Assembly (NCBI GenBank): GCA_039545335.1
Contig: BCIN01000001.1
Span: forward strand, 3,537,136 to 3,601,135
Length of the DNA: 64,000 nucleotides
Source: Kondoa subrosea
Taxonomy: Eukaryota
Direction: 5' to 3'
Shown here: one piece after another, positions 1,268 to 40,505 of the stretch
How the letters are laid out: the number at the start of each line of letters is the position of its first letter
How positions within the stretch are numbered: the stretch's first letter is position 1
Position numbers and translations under genes: made by a program
Notes under the pieces: model-generated
The model's input: the letters and a program-made list of their open reading frames with translations, nothing else
Databases searched by the model: none
What the model was told of the DNA's origin: nothing

Positions 1268-1996
1268 AAAATTACGCGTGCTGCAGGAATCAACAGGTTC
1301 TGAACTTGATTTTGACAGCAGCAAGGGAGATGGATCCTCTGTCAGACTGATTTCTGCAGGCATTCGGTGTGGAATCATCGGATTCTTGTTAAGGAGAGTT
1401 AGAAGTATAATGGGCGGGAAGAGGTCCATGAAGCTTTTTTATGATCGCGAATGTAGCGAAATTCGTTGGAACAGCAAAAGTAAACAAATTGACTCCATAT
1501 ACACCTGGACTGAGAGAAACGGGTACCCGAGTGCTATATTTTGCACCAGGCTCTGCAGTTGTCACTAAAAGCAGCCTGCTATTTCGAGGGCAAGATGAAA
1601 GCGCGTCGCTGAGGTTGTCTGCCAAACATATTCCAAGCACCTCAATTCGAATATGACGGAGGCCAAGATTAGGCAACGAGCAGCAGAAAGGTGAGCAAAT
1701 CATATGAGGCTGTTCATGGCCATCGCTTCTGATCGAGATACAGCTAATGGCCCAATTTTCCGCGTCACCCGAAGGTTGTTTGGAAAGTAGATGCGTAAGA
1801 CGAGCGAGGGTCGATGAAGGACGCCATCAAGTGCCATTCATTGCTCTTTGAATTACATTTCCGAGATTTTCGGGTTACTAAAAGCTATTGGTCAATTCCG
1901 CCCGGACATGCATTTCGCCAGTGAGCTCACATCGTATCTTGGACATTTAAATCCGATGCAAGGTATACTACTGCTGCAGCGTAGGCGAAAAGAACT

Positions 1997-2678
1997 TTAT
2001 TCCGCTGGTTTCTTTGCTTTGGCTCTTGCTTCTTCCGTCAATTTCATTTGCAAGATTTGGGTAAGTTGATATCTGTTGCCTTGCTTGCCCTCAATAGTAG
2101 CTTGAAGTTCATCCAAGTTCTTCCTCAAGCTCAAGATTTTGGTGTTGTAAAATTGCTTTGCTTCCTTTGTAGTCTTTTCCACGAAGTATCCGGTCCCTAC
2201 ATCGACCATGACGTTGCCTACATCTACCAATTTGCCTTCGACGTAAAGTGAGCTTGTCAGTGGAACCAGGATATCCTTGCCTGTCTCAAGAAGTGAGATC
2301 TGGCCGAGAAAGGGATCAAGTGACTGACCTTCGCTTGCAGGCGTAAGCGTGTTTAGGCAATTCATAGCTATAGAGAGTCTCAGCCTGACTTTATGCAATA
2401 TGCAATAAGCGACTTGTACTAACCTGCTTTAAATTTGGCTTCAGCTTGCTTCAGAGCAGCGTAACTGTTTGTAAGAAGTTCCAGCTCCTAGTATAAACAA
2501 GTATTGAGCGTCGCAGCTAGCTTGTGCAGATTGGCTGGCCTGACCTCATCCAATTGCTTGCGGACCTATTTCGCAAATGTTGAATGGAAACGATGACACA
2601 GCCTGCAATTCACCGTACCTGACTGAGCTGGTCTACGCTGAGCTGATCTATTGGCACCCCTTGCTCTTCGCCTGACAT
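1997..2678 (-). CDS. GIM5: Prefoldin subunit 5 (alpha type), multi-exon
   Basis: ILVPLTSSLYVEGKL..VMVDVGTGYFVEK signature. Start MSGEEQGVPIDQLSVDQLSQ at 2678. Confidence 0.93.
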
Positions 2679-3074
2679 TTGGCTTGGTCACAAGAAACCA
2701 AACTTCGCAAATTTAGGCGATGATGAGTATACCTCAAAGGTCTTGGAAGCAGCACTGCTCTGAATTCATCGCTGTGTGTCCAAATACTCTTGCTCTCTTC
2801 TTACTCTCCCAAGCGCTTGTTTCTGCATGAATTTTGCTGGTTGTCATGACGCTGGTCTCCTCTAGTAACACGCGCAGCCTTTTCGTTCCGTATCCGCTCC
2901 CCTATCTTTCCCTGACGTGGAAGAGAAGAGGCTGAAACTCACTTGCTGGCGGAAGATACATTCTGAAATTTCTGTCTTCTGTCCTTGCAAAGTCCACAAG
3001 GCGAAATGATTCTCACTTCCTCTTTTGCTCTTTGGACTGCTGCGACCACCGCTGCCGAAGCCGCGCCTGTCGTA

Positions 3075-3857
3075 ATGGGTTACTTTACAAAGAGTGAAGC
3101 TGAAAAGGAGCAGGAGAAACGAGTTGAGCTAGAGAAGTTCGTCTTATCTTTTCATCTTCCGAAATCCAATCTCGTATTGATGTTAGCGGAACGAAACAGA
3201 CAGAAACTCAAAGCTGATGAAGAAGCCCGAAGAGCTAAAGAGCATGATAAGCTACACAAGAAGAAAGGTCTTTTTGGAAGACGTTCCAGCACTTATAATC
3301 CTAAAGCTACTTCACCTGTCGTCAATACTCGCCGTCAATCTGTAGATAACCATCTCTCTGGTATGCCCAACGTATTTAGGCAGAGATGACATGCTTATCG
3401 CCTAGAGTACAGGTTCCGTTCTTTCTCCTGTGGGCAAAGCGACAAGCATGGACGAAGCTACTCGTCAGCTAGATAACGCTGTATGTCATGCACTTTGAAG
3501 ACGTATTCCGATCGTCTGAACAAACCTTCTTAAAGCGCCGTGCCGAAGAGGATCTCATCAAACAGCAGCGTGAAGTCGAAGAACAGCGCAGACGTCTCGC
3601 AATACAAAGCAAGGAACTGGAGGCTCGTTTGGCTGTTGCTCGTGTACGTGTGATCGATAACTCCTGTGTCACAATCTGACAAGATCTTCTTACAGAAACA
3701 CGCTAATGCTGCTCGAAAAGTTGTGGAAAAGTTCAGAGAAGAAGCCAAGATGCATCTCAAGCAAGCCGAGTGAGTGCTTGCGCGTCTTGATATTGTGACC
3801 GTGCTGACCTCTTGAATCAGTACTCTGACCCGTGCTGCAAACAATTTGACCCTCTAG
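3075..3857 (+). CDS. Hypothetical charged coiled-coil protein, multi-exon
   Basis: Spliceable exons MGYFTKSEAEKEQEKRVELEK...KLKADEEARRAKEH...EQTFLKRRAEEDLIKQQREVEEQRRRL...DTLTRAANNLTL*. No family recognised. Confidence 0.65.
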
Positions 3858-4043
3858 AGCATCTGGATGAGCGATATCGGGGTTGTATATAATGGCCAGA
3901 TTCCGGCATCACATGCGATTAATTATCTAATATTGCTTCAAAAAGAACGACTATCGCATCTATTCTATTACTTTCTAGAGTCTAACTATCTATGTGTCTA
4001 ATATGCACAGTGTCCTGCTCCTGACTCATATCGTCTGTCTTCT

Positions 4044-4639
4044 TTAAACAACTTGCGAACCGGAAGCTGAAGCTGAAGATCTAGCAGCGCTTGGGTAGAC
4101 TGAAGCTGGCCCATAAGAAGCTTTGAACGATGCTGAAGGAGCGCCAGACTTGGATTCGAAGCAGTTGGCGGATGCACCTGAGATAGCGCAAGAGAGGTAC
4201 TCTTGAGGAGCAGAGTAGACATAGGCAGATGGACCATTAACAAGGGTCGCAGTGTAGGTAGTGGATGCTGGTCAGATTAGTCAGCATCGGTTTTATACTG
4301 AATGAGGAAAAATCGACTGACCACCTCGGACAACATCCTTGTAGGTGACGGGACCTTCAACAGCAGACCCAATCTTGCTCAAGGATTGGGCAGACTTTAA
4401 GACAGATAAGTAAAGCGGAACGTGTACTGCATCGGAATGACTTACTGCTGAGACTGCGCTCGGAAGAGCTGAGGGCATAGCACCAGAAACGCTAGCAATA
4501 CCGTAGATGGTCTGTCTCTTCTCCATCTCGACAGGAGCAGCAGCAACGCATGCAATAAGAGCGGCAACTGGATTCAGAATGAGCTAATCAATTCAATTAC
4601 TAAAGTGATCGACGAACCGAAAGCAACGGAAGTTCTCAT
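4044..4639 (-). CDS. Small secreted Ser/Ala-rich protein with Kex2-type propeptide
   Basis: Spliced: MRTSVAFVAALIACVAAAPVEMEKR|QTIYGIASVSG...YLSCAISGASANCFESKSG...GSQVV*. Signal peptide, KR site, 2 Cys in the mature region. Confidence 0.75.
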
Positions 4640-4884
4640 TTTGTGTTGTGTGTTGTAGAAGGGAGTGAAGTGGTGGTATGAGGGCAAGGGAGAGCAGTAG
4701 AGGGAAGCAAATGATGGAACAGGAAAGAACTAAGAATAGAACGAGAAAAATTTGTAAGGCGCTGACGCAAGCGAGATAAGGGAAAGTAGCCGAAGCCAAG
4801 CCAAATGAGACAATGCAATACTGAACTACAGACTGAAGGTAGTACAATGATGTATAGACAGATACAGGGAGAAATACAGACCGA

Positions 4885-7800
4885 TTATGCAGATGAATGT
4901 TTGCTCTTGCTGCAACGAGCCGGAAGCTTGAAGTCTTCCGTGCGGAATCCGCCACTGTAGAGATCGCTGTCAGTATTGGAGAGCTCAGGAGAGTGAAGTT
5001 ACGGACCCCCCTGCAACGAGATATCAGCACGAGCACAAGGATTTGGGAAATATGGCTCACAAGGTAATGCACCACGGAGAACAGCAGATGGACCCATTCC
5101 GCGATCTGCGAAAGCCTCGAAGAGCGTGCAGTAGTTCTCTCCTCCGGTCAAAGCATGATCAGCCTGGAATCGCTAATCAGATCAAGTATGTTCTGAGTGC
5201 AACGAACTTACGGCAATGATAGCGTTCCTTGCATCAAGGAAAGATGGTCGGCATGGTTGAAGCTTCATGCCATCAAGGACGAGTTGCATAGCCAAAGTGT
5301 TTCCTCTGTCAGAAGAGATCAGTATATATTTCATCAGTCGAGCGAGTTGGCCGTACCTAGCTGGATGTTGTTTGCCAGTAGTAGATGAAGTATTGAAGAA
5401 GGAGTGGTGAGATTCATGACCAGGGCTAGGAGGGAAAAGCGAATGTTCGAAGCCGTGTTTCTTGACCAAAGCCTCGGCCATGACGAATAAGAACTCGCTC
5501 CAGACTTCCCCGATACTACCAACGATGCGATTAGTACTAGTGTGAGATGCAGACCAACAAGAATTACGCATGAACTTCCCACATCTCTAAAGAATTCATC
5601 TGCTCAATGAAATCCATCAAGCAAAGAAAAAGAAAAGACTTACTATCTACCGCCTTGTATGTGAAGGGGTTGACAGTGTGGTTCAATGAGTATGGGTATT
5701 TGCGAATACTGCAGAAAATCAATTCAATCTGTGTGTCGGCCCGAATGATCACGGAATGACTTACCCGCCGACTTGTCCGCTAGCCCACTGTTCGGGGAAG
5801 TACTCATTAGCGAACGGTCCTCTATTCCTGATTGACGGGGAACGCACTTCTCCCATTGACCAGTCTTTAGGCTTCTTCTTCGACATACGGATCATCGTCG
5901 CAACATAATCACCCCAGCCTGTTGCGACTCGTAAGACAACTTGCGGCGAGGCAGCTCTCAGAAGGTTTACCTTCGCCCATACCACCAGACTCTCCCCAAG
6001 GTCTAGAAAGAAGCGTTAAAGGCGAACTGCTGAAGAAATGTCTAAGCTCACAAGCCTGAGCACAACAGACTAGCTTAGCGAAACAGTAATATCCGTGACA
6101 TTTCGAACACTCACAACCACTGTTTGCGGGTCCGCCGGTCAATCGAGTTGAAACACCATGCATAAACTAAGCAGAATTAGAAGGAATTCCAGATTCAAGG
6201 CTTTAGTGACATACCTCGTGCACAACAATTCCCTCTTCTAGCGATCCGTCCCTGAATGGCTTCGCACCATTCCAGACGTACATCCTGTATATTTACTTCA
6301 GATCCATCATACGCCACTCCACTCCACTCTTGAACTCACCTCATGCGAGGTCTTTGACCATCTGGAGGAGTAGCGAACTGAAAAGAAGGTCAGCTAACAT
6401 TCTTCTCTGACGAAGCAAATACTTACGTTTGCATTGTTGAAGCCAGAGCCATCTTGAGCATTGGCAATCACGGCGTCATTCCCAATGCCTTTGTGACCTT
6501 TGTGGATGTTCCGTTCTTGGAAGTTACCAGCTGCTTCGTCAAAGCCATACTTGTATGTCAGATCGTGCCTGTAGGTGAAACGCGCACATAAGCTATCATC
6601 AACAGCTGTGCAGATGTAGTTCCCTACATCTTGTTGCAGGTGAAGACTATGAGGAGAGTAAGCGATGATAAGATGATCTTGATCGGTTAAAACATACATA
6701 ATTCAGTCGCAGACACATTGATATACGATTCAGGCTTGATATCTTTGCCCAGACATTCTTTGCCTTGACAACCCCAGTGAAGAGGGAAGGTGAAATTGAG
6801 ACCGGGTGCGTTAGGCTGTAAGTTGGAGCAAAAGGGAATGAGGTGGCAACCTCAAAGTCTGGCTACACAGCGTACTCTGTAATTCAGCTCGACTAAGGAA
6901 ATTGAAAGATCAGCATCAATCACAACAGGTCTCACAGAGCTGCTCACATTCGTTGCCTCCAGAAGGATTTGCTTGAGCAAAGACGTTGTTTCCTCTCGTG
7001 TCAGTAAAGTTCATGCCAACACCTCGCTTCAAAGTCTCAGACCATCCAGACTTGTGTTCCCAGCCATGGGGTAAATCTTTGACTGCTCTTCCACCATTCT
7101 TAGTCTCTCTCGGAATCTCATGCCAACCAAGAGGTGAAGCTTCTTCATCGGCAGGATTGACGACGACTGATCTTGGACCTTCGTAAGGATCATTGACGCT
7201 CCAAGCGAAAACTCTATAAATCGCATCTTTCCTTTCACTTTCTTCATCTCCTTTCTTCTGAGTGTCTTCTACTTCAACCACGGCTTCCTCATCCCAAAAT
7301 CGGTCTTTCTTGCCTAAACGAGGCTCTCGTAGAGAACCAGAGTAATCTTTCTGCCAATCGACAACCATTAAAGATTCTGGTTCTTCTGTTGCTTTCACAT
7401 GTGCTTCGTACCAATTATTAGAAGACTTGTATTCGAAAGACCAAACGAGATCAAGATTTCCAGATTCAGATTGCAAGTATGCTAGAGTAGCTGGAACAGG
7501 TTGGAGAGCTCCTGGAACATTATGTAAAGTTACAGAAGAAGAATGAGGTGCCATGGAAGACGATTGAGCGATTGTGATATCTTGAATATCGAGATCTTGT
7601 ACAGCTGCTTCTGGGTTACCGATAGAAATGAATGAGACTAGAGCTAATCTCGGATCAAGAATAGATTCGGGAATAGGTACTTCCAAGGTATTAATACATT
7701 CTTCTGCTGGTGCTGATTCGCCGAAAACAACTTGATTGCCGCTTGAGGGTCCGTTATCGATGAAGCAAGATTGACGACCTGACCAAGCTGAATTACCGTA

Positions 7801-8308
7801 AGAAAGAATCTGACCGGTGCTCATGTCGACATTGATATTGACCAAGGCATTGACAACGTCTTTGCCATTGATTTGCTGGATATAATGTGAATGGAAGCTA
7901 TGCCGAACAATATAAGCATGAGATCTGAAATGCTGTGCTCATGCACGTGGGGACTCACACGTTGGAGTTCTCCGATAAGAAGCTAGACTGCACTCGGAAG
8001 GTCTTGTTCGGGTGCAACTGGTGAATGAATCGTCCAGCAATAGCAGTGCCCAGCTCTTCAGGTTGGTCAAGAGCGTATGAGCCAGTGAGATCAGCCAAGC
8101 CAGCTGTATCCGCATTAAAGTTAAGGAGTAGTGGCGAGGCTGACTCCTCGATTGTAGCTACATGATAAGTAGATTGCTGCAAGACAGGACCAGTTGAGAT
8201 ACTGTGCCGTCCAGAAGGAGTGATGTGTTGAGCTTGAGGTAACAACAAAGCTTGGGCAACTCCTAAAGAGGCGATAAGCTTCAACAGGGCTAGTAAGCCT
8301 TTGGCCAT
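4885..8308 (-). CDS. Extracellular metalloprotease, fungalysin (peptidase M36)
   Basis: Signal peptide [69 protein letters not shown] (HExxH); [31 protein letters not shown]. Confidence 0.95.
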
Positions 8309-8448
8309 AATGATATGCGTGTAGATGTAGTGTGGTATATATATGTAACAGTCACAGCAAGCAATAGATTGCAAGCTGATAGATGGTACAAGAAAGAGAA
8401 GCGCAAGCCTTTGTTTCCCCACGGAGTTTCGGCCTTTGGTATCACCAG

Positions 8449-9929
8449 TCAGCTGCACACCTTTTGCTTCACATCACCCCAAGCTCCATCAGGATCCCAA
8501 ATCGCTTTGAGCCGGTCATATGCTTCGATGTCGTAAACATCCGACCACATCTTCTGCATGTAATTGTCTGCATAAAGCATAGGTCGCCCGCCTACTCTCG
8601 CAGCGGCCTCTTGTAAATTTTTCGTAACTTGTTTCACATCCACGCTTGCGGTGTACTGCCCCCAGTAGATGCCAAAATTGACCATATACTCGTCTTTTGC
8701 ATAGTGGGGTGAGAAGATCTGAGGTGTGGAAGTAGTCTTGATTGGACACAGCCACAGAGGCTTGACATATCCCGGAATGAGGGAAAGGAATTCATCAGCT
8801 TTGGACAAGGGTATATAGATGTCCTGGATCAGAAGAGTAGCTTGAACTATAGATCGAGGCGCTGCGTGTAGTCGAGCGTAAAGAGCTTTGGTAGACAAGA
8901 GAGGCGATACGAGTGCTCGAACAGGACCATAGTTATAAGTATTGGGAAAAGCATAGCGACCTTCGCGCAAATGTTCAGATGCGAGACTAGACTGTCTAAA
9001 AGTTCAAGCTAACCCATCCAGAATGCACATTTGTCGAACCGGAACAGGTAATCTCGCAGGGGTATGTATTCGACCTCTTGATCTCCTTTGTCCAGAAGGT
9101 GCAAATACCAAAATTGGCTGGAGCGATTTGATAATTGGTGAACTTTCTTTTCCGGACGGTGGATTTTGGTTGCAAGACAGATGATCGAAGTCTTCTCGTC
9201 ATATCGAACGGCATCAAAGAAATCCAATTCCATTTCTTCCTTCTTTCGCAAGAGAACTTGAAGCATTCCTATTGGGTCCTTTATTTTGAAGTATTGGACT
9301 TGCACATATCTCATGCCCTTCAGCTTCTTCAACTTCAGCGTACAGTCCAACAGCAACCCCAGAGTTCCCATCGCTCCCATTGCACCAAAAAACAAATCCG
9401 ACTCCTTCTCAGGCGAGCATTGCACTACCTTTCCATTCGCCAAGAGATATCTACAACTCAAAACAGAGTCGCCAAATTGACCGTATCGGAAGGAAGAGCT
9501 CTCTAACCCTGCACCAGCTATCAACCCGGCAACGGTAAGGTTCGTAAACTCTGGTAACACCGATGGTAGGAGATCCAAAGGTAGAAGAGCGTCAACGAGT
9601 TGTTCCATCGTTACTGAGGGTTCTAAAGTGACTGTAGCTGCTTCTTTGTCGATATGAAGTATTCTATTCTGACTGCCCACTTGAACTTCGTGCTGTGTTG
9701 AATTGCTAGGACGGTAAAAGACATGAGAAACGTTCTTCCGTCGGACTTTGATTCTGCTTCCGCTTGAGCGTGTAGCTAGTTGAGCTTGAATAGAAGTCAG
9801 AGGAACATGAGCGGTTTGATCTGATGCGAAATCTGGGAGACGAAGATAGAAGGGATAGAGAAGAAGATTGGTGATTCGTATCACAAGAGCCAGAGCTACA
9901 TTGAGCATAGCGCGGAAGGTTTCATGCAT
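8449..9929 (-). CDS. FAD-binding oxidoreductase, delta(24)-sterol reductase (DHCR24/DWF1)-like
   Basis: LEPSVTMEQL..PSVLPEFTNLTVAGLIAGAGLESSSFRYGQF; IPLRDYLFR; QDIYIP; PLWLCPI; GRPMLYADNY; YDRLKAIWDP. One intron near 8971-9010. Confidence 0.85.
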
Positions 9930-28173: not shown

Positions 28174-29300
28174 TCAAGGGAATGAATCCAACACTTCCTT
28201 CCTAGCATCTTCAACTTGATCGACAATCTTCTTGGCCATACCAGGCGCGATTTGGGTTTGACCTTTATCGAAAGCTTGCATAACTTCTGCAGTGAAATCT
28301 TTCAAAGACATGACATTATCTGGTTCTCCATTCTTATCGTATGAGAGATCTTTTTGCTGCAATGTAGATAGGTTAGGGTGTATCACATTGAGAAAGGGAA
28401 TCCAACAAACATTATGGCTATCATCTGTACATACAGAAACGGCGTGAGTTTGAGAAGGTATCGAGCGGTATTGAGTCTAACGCACGTAGTTCAGATTCAG
28501 TAGAAGGAGGTAAGATCTCTAACAATTTCAAGTTTGGGAATGGTTTAGTTAATTGCTTCCGTAAACCAAGAATGAACTGATGAGCGGCTGCTTTTGTCGC
28601 GCAATAATTGACACAGCGAGACATCGGGACAATACCAAGAACAGATCCTGCGTCCAATGAATGAATACGCAGCGGGAAATTGGAGATAGAATCGCTTACC
28701 AGTAAAACCTAAAACGACTTGCTGCTTCTTGCTCTTCTCTTGCAGGAAAGGTAGGAACGCGGTAGTCAGATGGACATATGAAAGATAATTGACTGTGATT
28801 TCATAGTCGAGTGTCTTCAGATCAACGCCTTCGGAACTATGAGCAGTCCCAATTCAGCTAGAAATATGTGGGAGTCGTCAAACAGACGGATTGGTGAAAT
28901 CAGCTCCACGTTGCAGGCCAGAGACAAGCATAACGAAGTCTACGTCGTCCATTAGTTGGAAGTATGTTATACGAGGATCAGCTCACCAAGATCAGGATGC
29001 TCATCAGTGACCTTCTTTGCAAAGGTCGGTATTTCGTCCAGCTTGCTGATATCTACGACACCATACCAAACAGATTAGCCCATACCGATGTCGATCCTCT
29101 TTCCACGCACCATTGACATATACCGAGCATTTATCCTCGCCCAGCTCCTTCTGCACTTCTTTGAGCTTCTCTTCTCGTCTGCCCGTCACTATGACTTTCT
29201 TGGCTCGATCGGACTTGACCAGTTCTGTAGCAAGAGAGCGACCAATACCTGAGCTTCCGCCAACGATCAGGGCCGTGTGCATTTTGATAGCTTCGGACAT
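28174..29300 (-). CDS. Short-chain dehydrogenase/reductase (DltE-like)
   Basis: TALIVGGSSGIG; VIVTGRREEKL; NYCATKAAAHQF (YxxxK); EILPPSTESEL. Confidence 0.92.
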
Positions 29301-29888
29301 GTTGAGACGGTCAAATAAGGATACAGTAGTGAAGTGGTAGAAGCTTAAGAAGAGAAACAACAGTGAGGGACTCGCAGGAGACTAAATAGATAAAAGCGGC
29401 AAAGGCACAATTGCATCAACAAGAAACGCATCGTCATCAAATTGCACTCGGTCGACCGTGAGGAGAGGAAACTGAGCGGATAGGACCAGAAGCTACTACA
29501 GCAAGCAATGCACAAATCGAATCATTGTAAACGCGCTGCACGCACAAATTTCAAGGCTTGACCTATCGCAGCGACAGTGGCATACCACGCTTAGGATACC
29601 TTGTTCTGGCCGCAGATAACCCCTGACACGAGCGTCGTGCGCTGACAGTTGTGGAGCGGAAGCATAGTTGAAGGATTCTATTTCTCGATCGGCTCAATTC
29701 TGGTGCTTTGTGTCAATTTGTACTGCGCTATAGTCTAGCTCAATTTATGCGACCAGACAGCCTATCACAACGCTACATGCTACGCATCTTCCTGCTTCCA
29801 TCAGTGCAAAATCTATTGAAAAGACTCTCGATCGATATTTGAGCTAAAGAAGGAGCAAGTTTGGCTTACTGGTTCAAGGACTGAGCGA

Positions 29889-30745
29889 CTAATCTACAGC
29901 CTTGATGCTAATCAGCCCGTCTCCAAGGACCTGTTCCCAGCTTGTTCTTCTTGTCACCAACAGATCCTCAAAGCCGGAGCCAAACAGATGAAAGGGGCAA
30001 GCAGCAGCATCTTTCTGGTCTGCTACCATCAGGTCTACGTCCAACGAGTCGAAACCTTTGATCTTCAATTGTCGTTCTTGATGTCCGCCGACCAAAGCAG
30101 CTGCTTTTGTGATGCCACGATCTCGCCGGGCCATGATCATGGCAATGTCCAGACCTTTCGCTTGAAAATAACGAAACATGATGAATGTAAAGAAGGGGCC
30201 AACGCTACGGAAATTGTGGACCATCTGAATGGGATGCTTCTTTTCTGCGACCAATTTTGAAACGTAATGGATTGTACGAATTCCTTCGTTCAGCTTCTCC
30301 GAGACCCAATCTTTTCCGCAATGCAATAATGGAGATGACGCCAAGTGGGCATGATTCTGCAGATCGAAGAATTGTATGGAACTCAGAGCAATAATGCCAT
30401 TTTGGTCATAAAGTAAAGCAATTTCATCCATACCTGTCCAACGATCAGCCACATACTCACTCCGGCGACGACGAGGCGTACACAAGAAATCATCACTATT
30501 TCTACCCAAAACATTTCCATCCGCAGCGTAGATGATATCGTACTGCTTCTTCCAAAAGACGTATGCGTTACTGAATAATTCGCTGCCGTTACTACCAGCA
30601 GATGGCTTGGGAAGGATGGCCAGTTTCAAATTGATCTGTCCCGAGAGGCGATGGTAATCTTGAAGCAGAACGGATAGGTTGCGAGACTGCTCGCAAAGTC
30701 AGTCTGAGTCGCGTTGCCCAGAGACTCTCGAACCAGATCCTCCAT
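29889..30745 (-). CDS. Uncharacterised protein, possibly GNAT/acyltransferase-like fold, bacterial-like
   Basis: Long ORF plus two predicted introns (30687-30733 and 30434-30481) giving MEDLSRNL...FSNAYVFWKKQY...NSDDFLCMDEIALLY...FFDLQNHAH...IMARRDRG. The fold call is inference; the start is uncertain. Confidence 0.6.
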
Positions 30746-31181
30746 TGTTGCGCACGGACGAGCCAGGCTTTCAAAAGCGTCTCTTCTGCAAATGAAGACC
30801 GGGAATGAGCATCTGCAGCGCGTTGCAGAGTAAGTCGAACAAACCTACTCCTTTTTATCCAACTGAAAGAAGAGATGCGACTCACCGTTCCTTGCTCAAC
30901 ACCAACACCTAGATCAGAGGCGGTGGCAGCAACTCATGCTTAAGGGTCAGCAAAATGGTCTTTCCTTGCCGGGTCCCATTGAGCTATCGCAGTCGGCTGT
31001 TTGCATCCGGAATGATCGTGATCTGCGATCACAGCTTTTGCACAAATCTCCGGCTCCCCGCTAGACGGGAAGCCAATACTTGAGCGGTTCCTTTCTAGGC
31101 TATCATCAATCTGCAACGCATCGGTACGTCCTATTGTTTGCTTTATACAGAAGAGTGCTCATTCATGCATGATATCAGGCT

Positions 31182-31772
31182 ATGCTCGCCTTCAAGCTTC
31201 AGCAGATTGCGCTTCTTCAAACTGGCATCACGTTCGGCATGTTCTTCGTGGGCAGCTTTCTTGTCTTCGACCTCTCGCATGTCCGACCCTCTCTACGCTC
31301 AACAATCTTTACTCTTTCGTGGCTAACATCTGTCACGTTTGCACTATATGGCCAGTACGCGTCGCCTCGATCGAGCATAATGTGTACATTGGCAACGCTT
31401 TTCGTGTCAGTTTCTTCAGGCACGACATTCTATGCTTCAGTCAAAGCCACACGTCAGAAGCCCCTGACTGCCATTCAGAGTTTCGACTCACCCCATCATC
31501 TGGTCGTTTCTGGACCTTATGCATATGTTCGCCATCCTTTCTACACCGCATACCTCCTCAATTTTTTGGCCACCGCACTGGCATCTACATCAAGCCTTCC
31601 AAAACTCGGTCTTCTTGGCGGATTCTGCATCTATTATTCTGCCGCTAGAAATGAGGAACGCAAGTTTGAACATGGTACATTGGAATTGGAATATGCAAAG
31701 TATGCTACAAACGTTGGAATGTTTTTTCCAAGGGTATTGCGTCGGCGCTGTACGCTCAACATCCCGCCATGA
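31182..31772 (+). CDS. Isoprenylcysteine carboxyl methyltransferase (ICMT/PEMT)-family membrane protein, intronless
   Basis: Several TM helices; DSPHHLVVSGPYAYVRHPFYTAY; AARNEERKF; EYAKYATNVGMFFP. Confidence 0.88.
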   Translation: MLAFKLQQIALLQTGITFGMFFVGSFLVFDLSHVRPSLRSTIFTLSWLTSVTFALYGQYASPRSSIMCTLATLFVSVSSGTTFYASVKATRQKPLTAIQSFDSPHHLVVSGPYAYVRHPFYTAYLLNFLATALASTSSLPKLGLLGGFCIYYSAARNEERKFEHGTLELEYAKYATNVGMFFPRVLRRRCTLNIPP

Positions 31773-34021: not shown

Positions 34022-34830
34022 CTAATTGTTCTCGTCTAATCTTTCGTCCTTCCTAGGTCTGAGCATGCCATCGATGCCATCGGGCATAATGTGTTCCCAG
34101 CCTTTGGCCGGGAATTGTTTTGCGACAAAATAGCCACGACTTTTGTACAACTGTTGCAATGCGTTCAGCTCGATGTAGTAAATGCCACCGATGCAAATCA
34201 CCTTCATGCCTTCGGGGGATGATTCGAGCCATGATATACCATTATCTCTATCCACATGCTTCAGACCTTCGTCAAGCAATCTGGAACCGATGCGCTGTCC
34301 CTGATGCTCCGGTGCAATTGCCAGAATTTGCAAATACCAATACCCCTCTTTATCTCCTCTTTCTCGCATGACAGCATTCTTGCCGTCTATACAAGCTTTT
34401 GCGAGGTTGTTTAGGTTCTCTACACTGTGGCCAACATAGGTTGATCTTTCTTCTTCGTCCATCTTTGAGAGATCGATAAGTTCGCTCTTATACGAAGGTG
34501 TTCCCCACAATGCAAAGCCAACCACTTCTCCTTCAGGTGTAACTGCTTTCCAGCCCATCAGGTTTGGTCCATCTTTACCCATAAGTTTCTTCTTCAATCT
34601 CAGACCGAAACGCTGTGCTCGTACTGGCATTGGATCGCGAGGTGGTGGCTATAGCGATTGAGAAGTTACAACTATGAGTCCGCGGGTGCATTTGCATGAG
34701 GTTCTTGACATACTTCCATCATATCTAAGAATTCGGTCGATGGATCACAAGACTCGCATTGTACAGTCATGATCTTGCTCAGATCTTCATCGACCGTGAT
34801 CCGTGAGATGGTGATGTTTGCTTCGGGCAT
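34022..34830 (-). CDS. GNAT family N-acetyltransferase
   Basis: VVGFALW; WYLQILAIAPEHQGQRIGSRLL (motif A); WLESSPEG..LYKSRGY. Confidence 0.9.
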
Positions 34831-38913: not shown

Positions 38914-40505
38914 TTAGACCTCTCTTGAAGCTGCCTTTGGTGTACGGGGAAGAGCTATTGATCTCATGAGCACAATCGCATTTAAAAGATAGCCTTGGAA
39001 CGAACCGCTTCTTGGGAATGAGCCCACTTGAAGAGCATGCAGTCGATCCCGGTACTCTTTGTTGATTGAGAGGGCATTTGGCTACGCAAAGGTTGCCGAA
39101 GAGAACCTCATTGTTGCCAGTACATTCCTGTCAAATTGTCAAATGTCAATAAAAAGTGGTATTCTTCGGGAGAGCATCTTACACATGAGATAGAGCCTGG
39201 TACGCGCGTGAAGCCATTGCTGCATTTTGCTGTGCAGACGTCTCCGAAGAGCAGCTCATTGTCGCCAGTGCATTCCTAAAAAAAGGTCAATAAACGGTAA
39301 AACGTGGCCCTCAAGAGGTACTTACACATGCAGTAGAGCCCGGCACGCGCGAGAACCCAGATTTACACTTGGTTACACACTGATCACCGAACTAAATGAA
39401 GCAGGCGTCAAAATACTGTCTAACAATGATATTTCTGACTTACCAGAACTTCTTTACCGCTAGAGCAGACACATGAATTGCTTGAAGCGTCGTAGGTAAA
39501 GCCTTTAGTGCAGGTATCGGTGCAAGTCGTCTTTCCGGGNNNNNNNNNNNNNNNNNNNNNNNNNNNNNNNNNNNNNNNNNNNNNNNNNNNNNNNNNNNNN
39601 NNNNNNNNNNNNNNNNNNNNNNNNNNNNNNNNNNNNNNNNNNNNNNNNNNNNNNNNNNNNNNNNNNNNNNNNNNNNNNNNNNNNNNNNNNNNNNNNNNNN
39701 NNNNNNNNNNNNNNNNNNNNNNNNNNNNNNNNNNNNNNNNNNNNNNNNNNNNNNNNNNNNNNNNNNNNNNNNNNNNNNNNNNNNNNNNNNNNNNNNNNNN
39801 NNNNNNNNNNNNNNNNNNNNNNNNGAGCAGACACATGAATTGCTTGAAGCGTCGTAGGTAAAGCCTTTAGTGCAGGTATCGGTGCAAGTCGTCTTTCCGG
39901 GCACTCTTTCTTCACCCAAGGGGCATTTTTCAACGCATTGATCACCAAACTATCATGTGCAAGCATGAGAAGGAGTCTAATGAAGATGTTTCTGACTCAC
40001 GAGAACTTCCTTGTTGCCAGTGCAGACACAAGAATTGCTTTGAGGGTCGTAAGTAAAGCCTTTTGTGCATTTATCGGTACAGGTTTCTTTGCCAGGTACC
40101 TGTTAGGCAACCATTGTATAAATTTAGCTCTATCAATCTATCATACACTAAACGCACTCTCTCTTCCCCCTCAGGGCATTTTGCAACGCATTTGTCGCCG
40201 AAGAGCAGATCTTGATCCGCAGTACATTTGATAACACACATGCCACCCACACATGTCTTCGCCGGGTCACTGCATGGCCAATAACTGCTGCACTCAGCTG
40301 AAGAACGTGGTCGCAGAGCACCCGCTGCTCGAGTAGATTTTCTGACTTTGGGGTTATATTGAGCTCTTTTGATTCTTGCGTAATCGTAAGAAGTTTTTTG
40401 ATTAGGGGTAGACTTCTTGTTTAAGGTGTTACCGCCAACGAATCCTGCACCGGAAACTTGAGAACAAAGGCTGAGAGCCAGAATGAATGAGATCGCCGCC
40501 TTCAT
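38914..40505 (-). CDS. Secreted cysteine-rich tandem-repeat protein (spans assembly gap; 3' end uncertain)
   Basis: Signal MKAAISFILALSLCSQVSG; at least 5 repeats of C-x6-LFG-xx-C-xx-KC-x5-RVPG-xxx-C. Confidence 0.8.
39540..39824. other. Assembly gap (285 N) flanked by identical 77-bp sequences
   Basis: 39463-39539 is identical to 39825-39901. Confidence 0.95.

Follow-up and report, generated by a model that had tools for sequence, protein, structure and literature searches.

ICMT methylates the carboxyl group of a lipidated (prenylated) cysteine. The C-terminal cofactor-site motif of the ICMT/PEMT superfamily is RHPxY followed by EE. Two kinds of acyltransferase with the GNAT fold are compared here, FeeM (2g0b) and the LuxI-type acyl-homoserine lactone (AHL) synthases (LasI 1ro5, EsaI 1kzf, TofI 3p2h, RpaI 6wn0 and BjaI 5w8a). 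According to the part of the source available, RhlM of Paraburkholderia kirstenboschensis is an ICMT-family integral membrane enzyme which is encoded in a rhamnolipid cluster, next to the genes for synthesis of its lipid substrate, and methyl-esterifies the lipid carboxylate with S-adenosylmethionine (SAM) (PMC11069360). Its products are rhamnolipid methyl esters, which are abolished by knock-out, and a conserved His and Glu are named as SAM contacts in the same part of that paper (PMC11069360). For the N-acyl alanine methyl esters, the portion of PMC11580390 available reports that no candidate synthase was found. The present analysis concerns a pair of divergent genes in a 64,000 nt stretch of DNA (the window) from the fungus Kondoa subrosea (Eukaryota; assembly GCA_039545335.1, contig BCIN01000001.1, forward strand, 3,537,136-3,601,135). 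One encodes a membrane methyltransferase of the ICMT/PEMT superfamily and the other, referred to as the partner, a protein with a predicted FeeM/LuxI-like GNAT fold. All coordinates are those of the window.

The pair is real and unusual, and in bacteria the genes for these two types of enzyme show tight linkage. The methyltransferase gene (31182..31772, plus strand) is intronless and consists of a single open frame of 196 codons, from the ATG at 31182 to the stop codon at 31770-31772. The partner gene (29889..30745, minus strand) contains two short predicted introns and encodes 253 aa when spliced. Both genes are intact and lie head to head with 436 bp from ATG to ATG (30746..31181, no strand assigned) and nothing between them, a geometry read from the sequence. 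This shared upstream region is a putative bidirectional promoter. Both open frames are more than chance because real homologues exist and because the methyltransferase frame scores above Pfam cut-offs. The flanking genes are ordinary split (intron-containing) eukaryotic genes of the SDR (short-chain dehydrogenase), Rad51-like, GNAT, WD40 and HhH-GPD types. The first-pass annotation had described a head-to-head pair about 440 bp apart and unlike its flanks, with an intronless ICMT-family gene carrying a particular motif string and a partner with two short introns. All of this agreed with the measured locus, the inferred introns being 47 and 48 nt long.

The methyltransferase belongs to the ICMT/PEMT superfamily. 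It scored 31.1 bits against PEMT (PF04191, cut-off 25) and 26.9 bits against ICMT (PF04140, cut-off 24) in Pfam. A profile of the window gene and its 8 first homologues matched the solved chains of AtTam46 (E 2.7e-11), Ma-ICMT 4a2n (E 1.1e-9) and Tribolium ICMT 5v7p (E 3.9e-5). The AlphaFold2 model had a predicted local distance difference test score (pLDDT) of 71.8 and five long helices at residues 2-28, 40-60, 66-92, 119-134 and 138-163. VIA-align of this model gave Ma-ICMT 4a2n_B as the best match (Z 11.1, 168 of 192 residues aligned). Foldseek returned nothing at E <= 0.001, with 5v7p a weak match at E 0.11. Because Foldseek alone was weak, the family was settled by VIA-align together with the sequence profile. 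The superfamily and fold are shared with Ma-ICMT (4a2n) and with the eukaryotic ICMT/Ste14 enzymes (5v7p, 5vg9), but a length of about 190 aa and five helices correspond to the size of a prokaryotic ICMT, compared to 288 aa for the eukaryotic 5v7p.

The motif string LTAIQSFDSP..LVVSGPYAYVRHPFYT...EE.KF...EY..Y is present in the methyltransferase. RHPFY (31530..31544, plus strand, residue 117 on) lies within the block GPYAYVRHPFY, which was invariant in all nine aligned sequences. Downstream of it an EE pair (31653..31658, plus strand, residue 158 on) aligns with EE/E of the bacterial relatives. These two motifs are taken here to be the cofactor-site histidine region and the cofactor-site glutamate region, respectively. 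The NCBIfam equivalog isopcys_mtase (NF040696) was not reached (37.5 bits against a cut-off of 160). An assignment as Ste14 or as a CaaX-processing enzyme was ruled out because the protein falls far under this equivalog cut-off and, at 196 aa, is much shorter than the solved eukaryotic ICMT 5v7p. RhlM resembles the window methyltransferase as an ICMT-family integral membrane enzyme, a likeness drawn from its description and not from sequence comparison; unlike in the window, its partner genes in the part of the source available are rhlA/rhlB, with no GNAT (PMC11069360).

Relatives of the methyltransferase are overwhelmingly bacterial and 33-49% identical to it. A single-sequence search gave 8 matches, the best with 42% identity. 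The profile search gave 2318 matches at E <= 1e-8, and all 12 organism-bearing names among the 120 matches listed were bacterial. A scan of prokaryotes, one genome per species, with the pattern YAYVRHPF yielded 54 loci (L001-L054), mostly of Alphaproteobacteria, and the methyltransferases of the 30 best-matching loci were 33-45% identical to the window gene. Only two other eukaryote-looking relatives were found, in a search that lay outside the fungal genome collections and in which many matches carried no taxon. In the tree only P0001 and P0002 grouped with the window methyltransferase (support 98/93). P0002 has an AT-rich extension upstream and appears to be eukaryotic. The methyltransferase is probably bacterial in origin, its gene having most likely been acquired by the fungal lineage in an ancient transfer from bacteria.

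The partner was modeled with AlphaFold2 from a shallow alignment and gave a mixed alpha/beta GNAT fold (pLDDT 76.4, predicted template modeling score 0.76). The top Foldseek match was FeeM 2g0b (E 3.9e-5, TMt 0.72), followed by the acyltransferase domain of NcdE, other GNATs and the AHL synthases LasI, EsaI, TofI, RpaI and BjaI. There were 49 matches at E <= 0.001, and nearly all among the matches listed were GNAT-fold enzymes. An independent VIA-align run over 48,161 chains also placed FeeM first (Z 12.8, root mean square deviation 3.6, 185 of 188 residues), with the runner-up at Z 11.9. A total of 133 chains reached Z >= 8 and the top 50 were filled by GNATs. The AHL synthases share the GNAT sub-architecture (VIA-align Z 9.9-10.9, Foldseek E 4e-4 to 9e-4) but scored below FeeM, and nothing suggests lactone formation by the partner. 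ESM features were used as a lead only. The clusters nearest to the whole partner were unnamed bacterial ones at 0.95 and FeeM/Acetyltransf_5 ones at 0.93, while for exon 3 the nearest were FeeM-bearing clusters at 0.90/0.89, Autoind_synth clusters were also present and FeeM dominated the named neighbors. The models support a GNAT fold for the partner that is closest to the FeeM/LuxI-type synthases.

At the sequence level the partner had no match in Pfam or NCBIfam, and none of the 9 family members (0/9) matched anything relevant in Pfam at E <= 10. The LuxI family hidden Markov model (HMM) Autoind_synth (PF00765) likewise had no match in the partner family. A phmmer search of 1.84 billion (1.84e9) representative proteins returned 8 homologues, the best with 55% identity and E 3e-61. 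All 8 came from raw-read assemblies or the ENA, in clusters of 1-2 members, and were fragmentary in the manner of intron-split genes. The partner was 55% identical to the homologue P0009 over the core, with the motifs conserved. Numbered in the unspliced frame, the conserved columns are D94, N111, H114, S118, G124, W127, G135, R137, F174, G178, L179, R187, G191, G200, G201, E204, G236 and F239. A loop R188-D-R-G191-I-T193 lies between the strand 181-187 and the helix 192-198. R187 is conserved in 8/8 and G191 in 7/8, while several members end the loop with T, A or D and not with G or A. A word-indexed search with the partner gave 886 candidates, none of them significant, and a search for loci related to the partner alignment gave no conserved stretch. 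Metagenome scans with the methyltransferase relative P0001 and with the partner alignment had no matches, and the partner profile had none in PDB sequences. The partner founds a very small GNAT family, and both genes of the pair add new members to superfamilies already known.

The link between the two enzyme types was found in the bacterial loci. A FeeM-family gene (PF21926, E 1e-30 to 1e-37) lies immediately upstream of the methyltransferase in 14 of the 54 loci (L002, L011, L015, L016, L017, L018, L021-L027 and L030), on the same strand and often overlapping it. The two genes are co-directional in these loci. FeeM is present within 4 kb in three further loci, about 3 kb off on the other strand in L005 and L007 and two genes off and divergent in L001, which brings the total within the flanks to 17/54. 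The residues E135 and R138 (an E..R pattern) are invariant in the bacterial FeeM neighbors. A PAS-GGDEF-EAL gene follows the methyltransferase in 11 scanned FeeM-linked loci and relatives. Of 151 alphaproteobacterial genomes sampled evenly, only 3 had FeeM, the center genome included, and the other two FeeM genes of this sample do not adjoin a methyltransferase of this type. Since bacterial FeeM is rare and yet closely associated with this type of methyltransferase, a FeeM-like fold beside the same type in a fungus is unlikely to be due to chance. In the tree the FeeM-linked bacterial methyltransferases form one clade (support 96/91) and those linked to a divergent alpha/beta hydrolase another (support 97/98, 13 rows).

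The first-pass annotation had read the locus as a prokaryotic-type methyltransferase, distinct from Ste14, beside a GNAT/LuxI-like protein resembling bacterial proteins encoded near ICMT-family and di-iron genes, and had suggested a co-transferred module. The type of the methyltransferase, the fold of the partner and the proximity of FeeM/LuxI-like and ICMT-family genes in bacteria were borne out by the bit scores and relatives, by both structure aligners and by the 54 loci, respectively. The resemblance of the partner to bacterial proteins stood at the level of the FeeM/LuxI fold but no bacterial sequence homologue was detected. The di-iron link was not recovered, as no haem-oxygenase-like di-iron gene was found among the 151 bacterial neighbor proteins scanned. 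The overall interpretation holds for the family and type of the enzymes, the fold and the bacterial linkage, but not for bacterial homologues of the partner or for a di-iron gene.

The bacterial loci also showed other features. FeeM-family synthase, ICMT/PEMT-type methyltransferase and PAS-GGDEF-EAL genes form a co-directional, often overlapping three-gene unit in the loci with FeeM immediately upstream, at about 4700-8700 in most of them and at 2000-6000 in L011 and L016, with OmpW next in some loci. The unit was found in Acetobacteraceae, Roseomonas-like and Phyllobacteriaceae genomes. In the open-access full-text and bioRxiv literature no paper on this unit was found. In L026 (5698-8727, a Rhodopila metagenome-assembled genome) the methyltransferase and GGDEF-EAL lie in one stop-free frame, which may be a natural fusion or a mere missing stop. 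An alpha/beta hydrolase gene lies beside the methyltransferase in L001, L004, L006, L008, L009, L010, L012, L014, L019 and L029, mostly divergent and upstream, and one gene further in L014. Nine of these ten loci are in the 97/98 clade, with L029 outside it. L001 alone of the ten also has FeeM, located behind the hydrolase.

The partner gene model was built around a 269-codon stop-free frame on the minus strand (30698-29889), which contains AYVFW, FFDL...AH and RRDRG. No in-frame ATG is present near its 5' end and the nearest, at 30745-30743, is joined in phase through intron 1. The splice sites are predicted from the sequence. Putative exon 1 (30734..30745, minus strand) comprises the ATG and 3 codons (MEDL), and no other ATG can be spliced in phase onto the long frame. 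The N-terminus is uncertain, as the homologue P0014 starts opposite the first residue encoded by exon 2. Predicted intron 1 (30687..30733, minus strand) is 47 nt long and reads GTTCGA...CAG (GT..AG) with a branch site CTGAC. Exon 2 (30482..30686, minus strand) encodes the N-terminal helix and first strand of the fold and aligns with P0014 and P0012. In the model this part has a helix at 2-17, a strand at 21-26 and a helix at 35-54. Predicted intron 2 (30434..30481, minus strand) is 48 nt long, in frame and stop-free, and reads GTACGC...CAG (GT..AG) with a branch site CTGAT. Its removal converts SDDFLC...GMDEI to SDDFLCMDEI, which matches the pattern SDDFL..DEI of the first-pass annotation. The intron is supported by the homologue fragment P0014 ending, and P0009 beginning, exactly there. 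It is also supported by the pLDDT of the model, which falls below 50 at residues 58-64 and 70-81, within and beside the intron-coded stretch. If retained, intron 2 would add 16 mostly basic residues in a surface loop and the protein would not be broken. Exon 3 (29889..30433, minus strand) carries the GNAT core with the family-conserved residues and the stop codon. The spliced coding sequence comprises 253 codons and one stop codon.

By analogy with the bacterial loci, the two divergent genes may form one small biosynthetic module. The soluble partner, as a FeeM/LuxI-type GNAT acyltransferase, would N-acylate an amino acid or a comparable amine with a fatty acyl group drawn from acyl-coenzyme A (acyl-CoA) or acyl-acyl carrier protein. 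The resulting N-acyl compound would be amphipathic and retain a free carboxylate, which the membrane methyltransferase would then convert to a neutral methyl ester with SAM. Methylation of this kind has precedents in ICMT, acting on prenylated cysteine, and in RhlM, acting on rhamnolipids. The two genes would be co-expressed from the shared 436 bp region. A two-enzyme module of N-acylation by the partner and methyl-esterification by the methyltransferase is put forward tentatively, as a possible reading somewhat short of probable. The functional link between the enzymes is argued from the bacterial arrangement, and we infer the substrates, the order of the steps, co-expression and transfer. 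Compared to the bacterial FeeM/ICMT-type/PAS-GGDEF-EAL operon, the fungal pair likewise has a FeeM-fold enzyme adjoining an ICMT-type methyltransferase, and the methyltransferases are 33-45% identical. The operon is co-directional with a cyclic di-GMP enzyme as its third gene, whereas the fungal pair is head to head without such a third gene, and the acyltransferases cannot be aligned.

A number of observations weigh against this module and favor the explanation that the genes are chance neighbors. These would be a stand-alone bacterial-type methyltransferase that has a substrate of its own and a fungal GNAT, perhaps an acetyltransferase, that evolves fast, is confined to its lineage and serves an unrelated role, the two sharing only an intergenic region. 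This explanation is regarded as somewhat doubtful. The partner lacks sequence homology to the bacterial FeeM neighbors. The FeeM family HMM PF21926 matched none of the partner family members at E <= 10 (0/9), and hhalign of the partner family with 10 bacterial FeeM neighbors gave a probability of 0.6% and E 0.1 over 16 aligned columns. Because these HMM and profile-profile tests failed, membership of the partner in the FeeM family is not supported, and by its model the partner is 'bacterial-like' at the fold level only. Further differences from FeeM, which has a similar predicted fold and size and whose family adjoins the methyltransferase relatives in bacteria, are that the E135/R138 pattern has no evident counterpart in the partner and that the partner is eukaryotic and intron-bearing. 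An hmmsearch with the partner profile found nothing in the 5521 open reading frames of the 54 loci (best E 1.2). The profile also found nothing in 10 bacterial genomes bearing the methyltransferase type or in 401 Myxococcota genomes, in searches that had no positive control genome. The GNAT pyrophosphate- or CoA-binding loop is Q/R-x-x-G-x-G/A after strand 4. The R-x-x-G-x-[T/A/D] loop of the partner (188-193; R-x-x-G-x-T in the window protein) resembles this motif, which is typical of ordinary GNATs, and the bacterial FeeM neighbors are without it. Other GNATs reached Z 10-12 in VIA-align, only about 1-2 units under FeeM. GNAT genes are common in fungi and a second one lies just 2.25 kb away (34022-34648). 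FeeM is missing from 37/54 bacterial loci, several of which have the divergent alpha/beta hydrolase instead, and no GNAT or FeeM was found among 45 neighbors scanned in the distant loci L031-L054. The fungal genes are head to head but those of the 14 bacterial loci are co-directional. Co-location of homologues of the two genes was not seen in other assemblies, a weak test in which fragments under 107 aa and members within clusters can be missed. However, it was FeeM and no generic acetyltransferase that was best in two independent aligners, over 185 of 188 FeeM residues, and that dominated the named ESM neighbors. FeeM is also rare (3/151 genomes) yet tightly linked to this methyltransferase type, and the fungal genes are themselves both rare, 436 bp apart and head to head.

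Transfer of the whole module, in which a bacterial FeeM-like synthase and an ICMT-type methyltransferase crossed as one piece of DNA, is considered unlikely. Afterwards the acyltransferase would have acquired two introns and changed until its ancestry was no longer recognizable, and the genes would have become divergent. A bacterial two-gene unit does exist, FeeM and the methyltransferase are already on opposite strands in L001, the partner has a FeeM fold by its model and both genes are extremely rare outside bacteria. The best tree also places the fungal clade nearer the FeeM-linked than the hydrolase-linked clade, but the join has support of just 47/29 and the fungal methyltransferase lies outside both. 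Its sister is a single Myxococcota sequence, L020 (86/92), whose neighbors are not GNATs. Approximately unbiased (AU) tests rejected neither the FeeM-linked (p 0.244) nor the hydrolase-linked placement (p 0.122). The donor clade is not resolved by the tree. The fungal methyltransferase shows no supported nesting inside a donor clade and no compositional trace. The pair is host-like in composition, with a GC content of 0.46-0.48 and a GC content at third codon positions (GC3) of 0.49-0.55, compared to 0.45-0.50 and 0.33-0.49, respectively, in the neighbors. Divergence is very unequal, with 33-49% identity of the methyltransferase to bacteria and none detectable for the partner, a contrast not expected if the two genes simply had a history in common. 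No relative of the partner turned up in the 401 Myxococcota genomes sampled. That both genes were transferred together is a minority possibility. It is very unlikely that either gene, or both, is an unexpressed relic or a wrongly modeled open frame. The start of the partner requires a 12 nt first exon with a weak donor, GTTCGA, and neither window protein is present in the protein database searched. Both frames are nevertheless long and intact, the partner retains its motifs and its 55% identity to P0009, neither the invariant GPYAYVRHPFY block nor the EE pair has been lost from the methyltransferase, and both proteins are predicted to fold with fair confidence (pLDDT 76 and 72).

The neighborhood of the L020 methyltransferase (1472-6306, a Myxococcota metagenome-assembled genome) is a different lipid or amine context. 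A 1421 aa fusion of AMP-binding, class-III aminotransferase and shikimate-DH-like reductase domains precedes the methyltransferase. A 276 aa frame beside it was rejected as an Arg/Gly-rich wrong-frame artefact of high-GC DNA. The two opposite-strand frames look like secreted proteins and do not resemble GNATs.

In the window an SDR gene (28421-29381, minus strand), which introns split over three frames, follows the partner in the same orientation after about 0.5 kb. The second GNAT (34022-34648, minus strand) is a canonical one (Acetyltransf_7/1) located beyond the Rad51-like gene. An N run (assembly gap) at about 39500-39860 has near-identical cysteine-rich coding sequence on either side (PGKTTCTDTCTKGFTYDASSNSCVC), which suggests a collapsed or unresolved tandem duplication.

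The same literature held no paper describing the pairing of a FeeM fold with an ICMT-type enzyme, even in bacteria, and nothing relevant on FeeM in fungi. The eukaryotic pairing is a new variant of a bacterial module not described in the literature found. If the genes are chance neighbors, the result is a modest one, namely a fungus with a methyltransferase of bacterial type and a GNAT family that is very rare. If they act jointly, the pair would be the first case in a eukaryote of an ICMT-type small-molecule methyltransferase coupled to a FeeM-fold acyltransferase, and the substrates of the ICMT family would be widened beyond prenylated proteins and rhamnolipids. It would also be a compact test case for the transfer of a signaling-lipid pathway from bacteria to fungi. 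That a bacterial lipid-signal cassette crossed into the fungus, with just the two synthesis genes kept and a bacterial-type N-acyl amino acid methyl ester made, is quite unlikely. In that event the product would belong to a compound class without known biosynthetic genes, even in bacteria, and the fungus could employ this ester either to communicate with bacteria able to sense it or to jam them.

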